A DNA stretch of 63,068 bases, filler included, from Rhabdomonas costata (lineage: Eukaryota), in NCBI GenBank assembly GCA_019059605.1. It is 42 parts of 42 records of this genome, joined end to end, with 100 filler letters (N's around TTAATTAATTAA, not from the genome) between each part and the next. Parts side by side here need not be neighbours in the genome. Positions count along the whole stretch, not along the records: positions 51,134 to 52,536 come from JAHMHO010016984.1; positions 52,637 to 54,047 come from JAHMHO010016985.1; 40 more parts are not named here. The stretch is one strand, 5' to 3'. Under the pieces are notes generated by a model. The model was not told the DNA's origin and made no database searches. It was given only the letters and a program-made list of their open reading frames with translations. Below are positions 51,034-53,444 of this stretch, piece after piece. The translations under genes were made by a program, and so were the position numbers. Each line of letters begins with the position of its first letter. Positions within the stretch are counted from its first letter, which is position 1.

Positions 51034-51347
51034 NNNNNNNNNNNNNNNNNNNNNNNNNNNNNNNNNNNNNNNNNNNNTTAATTAATTAANNNNNNNNNNN
51101 NNNNNNNNNNNNNNNNNNNNNNNNNNNNNNNNNATCTAAGGCTAAGCGTAGGAGTAACGCTGAAGTTGAAGGCCTGATGCTTCGAAGCTGAGGGTTAGAG
51201 ACAGAGGCAGAATCCCACCGCTGATGCCGATGCCTTAAAGGTGATGCTAGGATGATGCTAGGGTGCAATGCCTATGCTGATTCCTGCCGCTAGATGGGAG
51301 TTGGATGTCGGGATGTCTACGCCATCCCTCCTAGATGCGTGGTTCAG

Positions 51348-51860
51348 TCGTTCCACCACCCTAAGGTGCTTCCACTCCTTCACTCCGAACTCAGAACTCA
51401 GCATGACGGTCAGGATGCTCAGGTGTTCGCATCCTTCCCTCACGTGTGGTTCACTCCGCCGCTACCCGGCTACGTTCACGGTTCGTCACTCGCTACACGC
51501 TCGTTCCTCTCGACGTCAGCATTCTCGGTGCCTCCTATGCTTCCTCTGTTGATGGCTCGCTCCACCGCTTCACGGTTACGCTCACAAGACCAGGATATTC
51601 TGCTTGTCGTGATGCTCGGTACCTCGCATCCCTACATCTTCTAGTCAGGATTCTCGGTGCCTCGAATCCTTCCATCTTCCTGTCGGCATTCACTGCGTTC
51701 CTGCCTCCTATCCCCATTCGCTATCCGCTCAGTACCGAGCATGCGACATCATGGCATTACCCTGGTCGTCACTCCCCACCATAAGGCGGTTCGTTCCTCC
51801 ACCCTTCAACAGCCCTACGTGTCTCTTCACTCGTTCCACCACCCTAAGGTGCTTCCACTC
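51348..51860. repeat. 30-bp perfect direct repeat TCGTTCCACCACCCTAAGGTGCTTCCACTC at 51348-51377 and 51831-51860
   Basis: Direct reading. The two copies enclose 453 bp. Confidence 0.95.
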
Positions 51861-53444
51861 GTTCCGTCCGGGCGTAGCCACAGGAAGAGAACTCAGGGTT
51901 AAGGTTACGCTTACCCTTAGACACGAAGGATGGGTGTGTAGCGATCCATCCGTAGTAGGATGCAACGAAGGAGGGTTGAGGCATGATGGTTCTTGGCTTC
52001 TACAGTCATGCTGAGTTACTGCATTCTTCACTCATAGTCATGCTGATACCCTGAATGCCTCACGAACCCCTCACACCTCAACCCCCAACATCCTGACACA
52101 AAGCCCCAAGAACCCACACAGCAAGAACACACACAAGACCACACTACAGCCCTTGACACCAACAGCACCACGAACCACGACACCAGCCCCTCCGAAACGC
52201 AAGACACCATGACGTCAACACAACAAGCCCTAAACCTACGCACAATAACAACAGTAGCACTAACCCTACGCGTAACAACAACAGTAACAGTAACACGAAG
52301 CATAAGGACAACAACACCGGATTAGCCAAGCACACGAACCCTAACACACCAACCACCACGAACCCTAACACACCCTAAGCCAACATCCTACGCACAAGAT
52401 TAGCCCAACGCACCAACACCCTACCATAGTCACGCTAACCCACACACTCTCTACTACAAGGGTAAACCACGCCTTGGTTGAAGAGGTGATGCCAACATGC
52501 CCTACGCTACGATGCCAACACCCTACTACACATACANNNNNNNNNNNNNNNNNNNNNNNNNNNNNNNNNNNNNNNNNNNNTTAATTAATTAANNNNNNNN
52601 NNNNNNNNNNNNNNNNNNNNNNNNNNNNNNNNNNNNTCCGAACTTCCGTTTGTCCCGGAGTAGTAAAGAAACAACCACAGGCACGAGTGTGCCGTGCGCA
52701 GCCAAGGCAGTACTCACAGGGTTTCTATGACTCACATTTCGTGGGGAGGGCGGCAGGTATACGTGTGTAAATGGTGTGGTGGAATGCCAATGCGTTAAAT
52801 GCGTTAAACGGTAGGAGTCGGAATGTTGCAGTGTGTGGTTCGGATTTCTAGGTGCGTAAGGAACCGGGGTCAGCATGCGAGTTTGGGTATAAGCGTCCTG
52901 CATCGTGTCAACGGGCTGCGAGGGGTGGCCGGACGACATTGACCTCTGACCTCCCTTGTACCATCCTTGAAGGAAAATAGGTTATAGCAAAGAAACCTGT
53001 TTTTTGTCTATATGAAAACTTTTACAGCCCTGCCTCCTCTGCTTCTACGTCTTCGTTGGGTGGCGAGTGTAGACTGCACGGAATATCATGTGAGCCCGGC
53101 TCTCCTCTTTTGCTTCTGGTTCTTCCGGCTTTGGGTAAAATGTGCACTTATTAAAGGTTGGGGAAAGTGGGAAATGTTTTTTGAACTCCACCTTTGTGGT
53201 TTTTACTTGCTGCTTTTTACTTTTGGCTTTTATGCTGTGAAACGTGCTGTGTACATTTCTGTTTCGTTTCCACACTTACCATAAGCCCAAACCCATACAA
53301 AGGTAAATATCTGGGTGGCCAATCGAGTCCAACATAGAACTCCGGTTCATGCGTCCACTGGGTCCGGTTTGCTTTCTGGCGTGAGATGGCGCCAGAAATT
53401 CCCCATAACTTTCCCTCTGCCCCTCTTTTCGCCCTCACCCTCAG

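Follow-up and report, generated by a model that had tools for sequence, protein, structure and literature searches.

What kind of molecule gives rise to a contig that has no recognizable gene and not a single TTT? The question is raised by positions 51134–52536 (G000:C16984) of the window, the 63,068-nucleotide stretch of the Rhabdomonas costata assembly that was analysed, in which 42 unrelated contigs of about 1.4 kb each are joined. This contig contains no TTT, five AAA, and no AAAA, whereas the 41 other contigs of the window have 14–55 TTT and 6–68 AAA. GATGC/GCATC occurs 13 times, versus 0–7 times in the others. Local shuffles of the contig (1000) lead one to expect 17.3 TTT (minimum 5), 32.2 AAA (minimum 15), and 2.2 GATGC/GCATC (maximum 8). 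The contig is divided into skewed blocks, as follows: G accounts for 0.33 of the bases up to 51320, C+T for 0.65 up to 51870, and A+C for 0.77 from 52051. A perfect 30-mer is found at 51348 and again at 51831, with 453 bp between the copies.

The original prediction had named all of these features from the sequence. Its TTT and AAA counts are exact and lie far below those of the 1000 shuffles, the GATGC/GCATC excess that it claimed lies above the shuffle maximum, the block boundaries and skews are as it described them, the direct repeat around a 453-bp segment was recovered, and four further short words that it listed do occur twice each in the contig. It had also seen no recognizable ORF. In agreement, a Pfam search with the two longest ORFs (table 4, TAG = Tyr) matched no family, and an Rfam search with the contig matched none either. 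The tetranucleotide comparison that it had proposed places the contig closer to seven mitochondrial gene contigs (4-mer correlation 0.41–0.56) than to any of the 41 other contigs of the window (at most 0.34). When the assembly was searched with the contig, 40 of 357 candidates were scored and gave 64 matches, all partial save the self-match. Thus, the contig is a member of a large multi-copy family. We consider it likely that it is a variant of the noncoding arm that follows euglenid mitochondrial genes, that it is truly mitochondrial, and that such arms are the common control region of gene-sized, recombining chromosomes. The genes are considered next.

Profile searches of the assembly returned 46 matches to cox1, 37 to cob, 18 to cox2, 13 to nad1, and 19 to nad4/nad5, mostly G+T-rich fragments with in-frame TAG; the genes are known here as partial stretches in the assembly, as DNA only. 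With TAG read as Tyr, a piece of cox1 has as its best PDB match chain 8iuf_C1 (E 2e-93; runner-up 1.6e-60), which over the portion displayed reads as E. gracilis protein P0023. Eight of the nine cox1 TAG codons stand opposite Tyr in the alignment, and, in the aligned part, residues 1–253 are collinear with the Euglena protein without editing. The cox1 coding strand has G at 0.36 and T at 0.39. The 1,278 codons of eight gene stretches include 27 TAG, a combined 15 TAT and TAC, and not one TAA. A divergent frame at L080:600-1340 has a match to ATP synthase subunit a (6tdu_F, E 2.9e-15) and is mitochondrial atp6; the residues so matched are also matched by PDB chain 8iuf_N1, named ND1. The code with UGA = Trp and UAG = Tyr in mitochondria of this euglenid has already been published (Soukal et al. 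2021, PMC8219788). The TGA = Trp reading suggested by the original prediction is insufficient by itself, TAG = Tyr being needed too. That code is known; the new point is the gene flanks.

A search of the assembly for cox3 turned up no copy that is both rich in G+T and bears TAG. L273 (G000:C27469), L152 (C65586), and L153 (C39239) give strong matches of cox3 and nad type, which lack both TAG and the G+T skew and probably come from another organism in the sample. A weak cox3-like match (L274, G000:C31520:848-985, E 2.1e-5) lies within nuclear-type DNA. Copies of cox1 in L032, L034, L044, L081, L087, and L291 differ from L031 mostly at third codon positions (in L034, by 7, 6, and 29), so that either selection acted on several versions as they diverged or earlier states are preserved in old nuclear copies. 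A scan for relatives of cox1 elsewhere gave 80 loci at 37–52% identity; the 3′, 5′, and first-hairpin motifs described below are absent from all of them.

The genes share their flanks. A 3′ motif of about 40 bp, a 21-mer of which has 29 exact matches in the assembly, is located at the ends of cox1, cox2, atp6, nad1, and nad4, and a 5′ motif with 20 exact matches lies upstream of cox1, cox2, cob, and nad1. In L300, L301, L302, and L306, some 100 bases resembling the start of cox1 come after the 5′ motif and give way to other sequence, which is cob-like in L302 and L306; these are mosaic gene starts.

When 24 gene ends were traced from the beginning of the 3′ motif, no in-frame TAA was met in the first 15 codons. 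The closest one lies 15 codons on, in a single contig that flips strand there; elsewhere it is at least 66 codons away or absent. In L079, L080, L085, L092, L096, and L168, cox1, cox2, atp6, nad4, and nad1 run into the motif with TAG and TGA as sense codons and no in-frame TAA. The motif is entered in the same frame by cox1 (3 of 5), cox2 (9 of 10), atp6 (3 of 4), and nad4 (the frame of which is taken from the translation of L168), and in another frame by nad1 (3 of 3). Five genes without a genomic stop codon, in a code in which TAG and TGA are read as sense, pose a puzzle: on the evidence of the reading frames, termination would require a stop that is created on the RNA, or one that is recognized by its context. 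We suggest that the 3′ motif may be a transcript-processing site, the stop codon being completed after cleavage. Inspection found no single cut site yielding TAA in both frames of the motif. The cox1 mRNA of E. gracilis, as described in PMC4806707, is without polyadenylation.

Behind the 3′ motif comes a fixed series of elements, which the contig carries on its minus strand. At 52411–52536 (minus strand) is the tail of a conserved noncoding block of about 550 bp that in other contigs immediately follows cox1 and its 3′ motif. This tail is 84–99% identical to L079, L081, L108, L173, L017, L022, and L023, and 83% identical to L106. The order cox1, 3′ motif, block is found in L079, L081, L093, and L192; in L108, L113, and L173, the block precedes the spacer and the core. 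Since the contig, read on the minus strand, begins with the tail of a block found behind cox1, the A/C-rich block of the original prediction is the reverse of a G+T-rich 3′ spacer (52050–52410, minus strand), skewed as is the coding strand of the mitochondrial genes.

The block itself is found at L079:345-900 and in about 30 other contigs, with copies 70–97% identical, and also stands behind an unassigned frame in L176. What we took to be rRNA words had suggested LSU rRNA. An alignment to domain V of E. coli 23S rRNA scored below shuffles (z −1.5), Rfam gave only two weak, unrelated matches for the block, and this candidate was rejected; both partners have changed in 16 of 120 predicted pairs, but the covariation term is unfavourable. 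A protein was rejected as well: the block is without the third-position bias that the cox1 copies display, and its PDB and Pfam matches are unconvincing.

The spacer ends at the most conserved part of the arm, a 46-bp core (52004–52049, minus strand) in which an 11-mer occurs twice, at a distance of 32 bp. The core 17-mer has 65 exact matches in the assembly, against none for the reversed control. Among 232 unique loci there are 56 core copies with 0–4 mismatches, most of these copies having been fetched with the 17-mer itself; outside that 17-mer, 25 of the remaining 29 positions are at least 95% conserved. The copy in our contig is the exact family consensus. All 49 core copies that have 100 nt upstream have G+T of at least 0.71 there. 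Searches of metagenome, viral, and prokaryote collections with the core pattern returned no match.

The 3′ motif and the core occur together on six contigs. In five of them, L005 and L106 (with cox1), L016 (with nad1), L071, and L072, the two are on the same strand and 501–650 bp apart; in L134, they are on opposite strands. Gene, 3′ motif, and core are thus joined on single contigs in L005, L106, and L016, and L106 alone has cox1, the 3′ motif, the 3′ tail of our contig (83%), the spacer, and the core.

Beyond the core lie hairpin modules, delimited by eye from fetched loci. Close to the core the order of modules is fixed, with positions about 117, 141, and 205 bp from it (31, 34, and 19 copies, respectively); farther on, the order varies and both orientations occur. 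The first hairpin module, at 51923–51958 (minus strand), has a 6-bp stem and lies a median 117–141 bp from the core. Its stem is perfect in 34 of 41 copies, which fall into four compensated variants, whereas re-paired arms would give 10.6 (maximum 19), a covariation count that is inflated by related copies. The second fixed module, B, is at 51864–51881 (minus strand); its 19 copies lie a median 205 bp after the core in the same orientation.

The next module is the 30-bp repeat. Its copy 2 (51831–51860, minus strand) is a mini-hairpin with a 4-bp stem and a TTAG or TTAT loop, variants of which occur in other loci: seven distinct perfect G+C stems are found around one loop type, plus two single A+T-rich stems. 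Copy 1, a perfect repeat, is at 51348–51377 (minus strand). The 30-bp repeat is a duplicated module. The conserved element of the family is not this repeat but the core at 52004–52049. Between the two copies, 51378–51830 (minus strand) is a shuffled array of shared modules, 415 of its 453 bases lying in 12-mers of other loci. Three hairpins of the form stem-GA-N6-GA-stem are found in this segment (51412-51435, 51611-51630, and 51647-51670), compared with one in 57,565 bp of the other window contigs; the 55 core loci have 12, compared with 0.23 in shuffles. These hairpins supply four of the 13 GATGC/GCATC words, and five more lie in the left block. The H module of the inner segment is opposite to that of most relatives (31 reverse and 3 forward after the core). 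The G-rich end of the module region, 51134–51347, is 96–100% shared with other contigs (L002, L007, and L012) and continues into further modules in inverted order. Folding models, which score standard pairs only, gave a whole-strand energy for the contig no lower than that of shuffles (z −0.96), and none of five short folds was better than shuffles.

What, then, of the unique cassette? The original prediction envisaged a molecule of diplonemid or kinetoplastid type, in which 30-bp repeats bound a unique gene module or guide-RNA cassette. The repeat is perfect, and the DNA is indeed linked to euglenozoan mitochondrial genes. A blastp search with the six frames of the contig against 14 gene contigs, however, found no match, and DNA comparison with the same 14 found one 19-bp spacer word only, outside the inner segment. 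Because 415 of the 453 bases are shared with other loci and a gene piece is absent, the segment is not a unique cassette. In addition, 253 residues of cox1 can be aligned with the Euglena protein with no need for editing. We regard this model as the least probable of those considered. The mitochondrial part of the original prediction holds, in that the family is linked on single contigs to euglenid mitochondrial genes; the cassette part fails.

A nuclear satellite-like or non-autonomous repeat, or foreign DNA, joined to mitochondrial genes by chimeric assembly alone, would account for a contig that has no gene in an assembly where chimeras are common. Random chimeras would not be expected to put motif and core on the same strand at a spacing of 501–650 bp in five of six contigs, to polarise 49 of 49 cores, or to end five genes with one motif, and the collections of metagenome, viral, and prokaryote contigs lack the core pattern. 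This explanation is very improbable. A better case can be made that the arm type is mitochondrial while this particular contig arose as a recent nuclear copy (NUMT) or as an amplification chimera, so that its inner arrangement may be absent from the organelle. In many members of the family, the sequence passes into nuclear-type DNA or the gene copies are decayed, and the contig differs from the dominant letters of the sequencing runs at 16 places; consequently, this exact copy may be nuclear. Just 20–27% of the sampled words of the contig are present in the runs, and for parts of the inner segment the only run contigs that match have a depth of about 8. The reversed H module points the same way. 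So do fold-back junctions, i.e., perfect inverted repeats of at least 25 bases, which are found in 9 of the 41 window contigs and 26 of the 232 loci. Fold-back inverted repeats are typical of amplified DNA. Being both common and typical in this way, they make any single inverted join suspect. On the other hand, the contig has no nuclear flank, its core is exactly consensus, and its avoidance of TTT and AAA is intact.

Depth bears on the same issue. Across three runs of one sample, where depths compare parts of the contig only, the core has a summed depth of 2,464–41,562, the highest of the contig; 51134–51321 has 149–1,670, and parts of the inner segment have 16–79. Nearly every relative has its own arrangement of modules, so a low depth per variant is to be expected anyway. 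Shuffling of modules by recombination would leave the core in very high copy number and each of many arrangements in low copy number. We think a nuclear or chimeric origin of the contig unlikely, if well worth keeping in mind, and continue with the reading of a mitochondrial arm.

The ends of the arrays bear on the form of the chromosomes. Modules abut the 3′ spacer and, inverted, a 5′-type spacer (L299 and L312), as could be the case in circular molecules or in linear ones whose ends are inverted. In L312, inverted modules lead into the 5′-type spacer, and L299 goes further, on to the 5′ motif and cox2. L299, the best link from modules to a gene start, has a nuclear-type flank. The point at which its nuclear-type DNA meets the module array recurs in L310 (98% across 192 bases of what the two have in common), and, judged from this match, is likely a real nuclear insertion. 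L010, with two 3′ arms tail to tail, and L121, with a 5′-type spacer joined the other way round, do not fit one simple circle. The contigs, 0.2–4.4 kb long and with fold-backs, do not span a whole chromosome in any case.

The arm has a fixed plan of gene, shared 3′ motif, G+T-rich spacer, 46-bp core, and hairpin modules, and for its workings we propose the following. Each gene may lie on its own small chromosome, as is described for E. gracilis (PMC4700960). The core, together with the first hairpins, may be a protein-bound origin or promoter, a role suggested by analogy with conserved blocks in the minicircular organelle genomes described in PMC6868439, PMC7049700, and PMC10250338. Recombination between molecules would shuffle the modules. 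The most specific version, in which each gene is whole and stop-less on its own circle with a 5′ motif, a 3′ processing motif, an origin core, and a recombining array of DNA hairpins with G·A pairs, is put forward tentatively, as a possibility that we hold to be less probable than its negation. If true, the cassette-plus-control-region design of diplonemids and kinetoplastids would exist in a third euglenozoan lineage, without gene fragmentation or editing.

Our picture of euglenid mitochondrial architecture rests on E. gracilis, for which linear pieces in a pool without order are described, together with a single-cell genome (PMC4700960, PMC8130358). In the R. costata pool, a grammar can now be seen: one motif before genes, one motif after them, one core, and ordered hairpins. 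The arm provides defined targets for origin mapping, binding assays, and mapping of mRNA ends, and a PCR route to whole chromosomes. The reading of a mitochondrial arm would also place a large hairpin-repeat family of the assembly in the mitochondrion.

How does this organization compare with known systems? Spencer and Gray reportedly described terminal repeats of E. gracilis mitochondrial DNA in 2011. In its account of noncoding repeats, Dobakova et al. (2015, PMC4700960) only mention terminal repeats, and the form that they describe is linear. The E. gracilis DNA described there resembles that of R. costata in its collinear, unedited genes, mostly one per contig, its scattered gene fragments, and a recombination-prone pool that does not assemble into one molecule. 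Unlike E. gracilis as so described, R. costata has a 3′ motif common to five genes, a 5′ motif common to four, a core, and ordered hairpin modules. Our results agree with the account of R. costata by Soukal et al. (PMC8219788) in that UGA = Trp, UAG = Tyr, there is no sign of editing, and genes are on separate short contigs. That account describes gene contigs only; the noncoding arm, the shared motifs, atp6, and the missing stops are added here. In the literature covered by the search, which included PMC8130358 and PMC8061765, shared gene-flanking motifs, a conserved core, and a hairpin array are not described for euglenid mtDNA.

Like the cassette and constant-region circles of diplonemids, as described in PMC7049700, the arms suggest that many chromosomes have noncoding sequence in common around the part that bears the gene. 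The genes examined here are whole, collinear reading frames, in contrast to the small, trans-spliced modules described there. Arms of different genes share about 40–60 bp at 84–100% or 100–270 bp at 79–85%, and, among 36 pairwise comparisons, no pair of arms from different genes had a constant region of more than 90% identity over more than 100 bp. The nearest diplonemid parallel in PMC7049700 is the motif-only class X of Namystynia.

The core is also akin to the conserved region of kinetoplast minicircles, with CSB-3 (as presented in PMC6868439), and to the one-gene minicircles of red algae (as presented in PMC10250338). In each, a short, strongly conserved, polarised block is common to many variable molecules. 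In contrast to these minicircle systems, the R. costata arm probably has no guide-RNA cassette, and it has no near-identical constant region; its repeats are direct, whereas guide-RNA genes lie between inverted repeats in kinetoplast minicircles. A CSB-3-like word (at most 2 edits) adjoins 19 of 41 cores, versus 7 of 123 windows further upstream; since these 19 are for the most part a single related class, the resemblance is weak. Finally, two rarer junction motifs, with two copies each, are found at the usual position of the core between spacer and modules (L010:-111, L287:-653, L059:-1356, and L079:1406).
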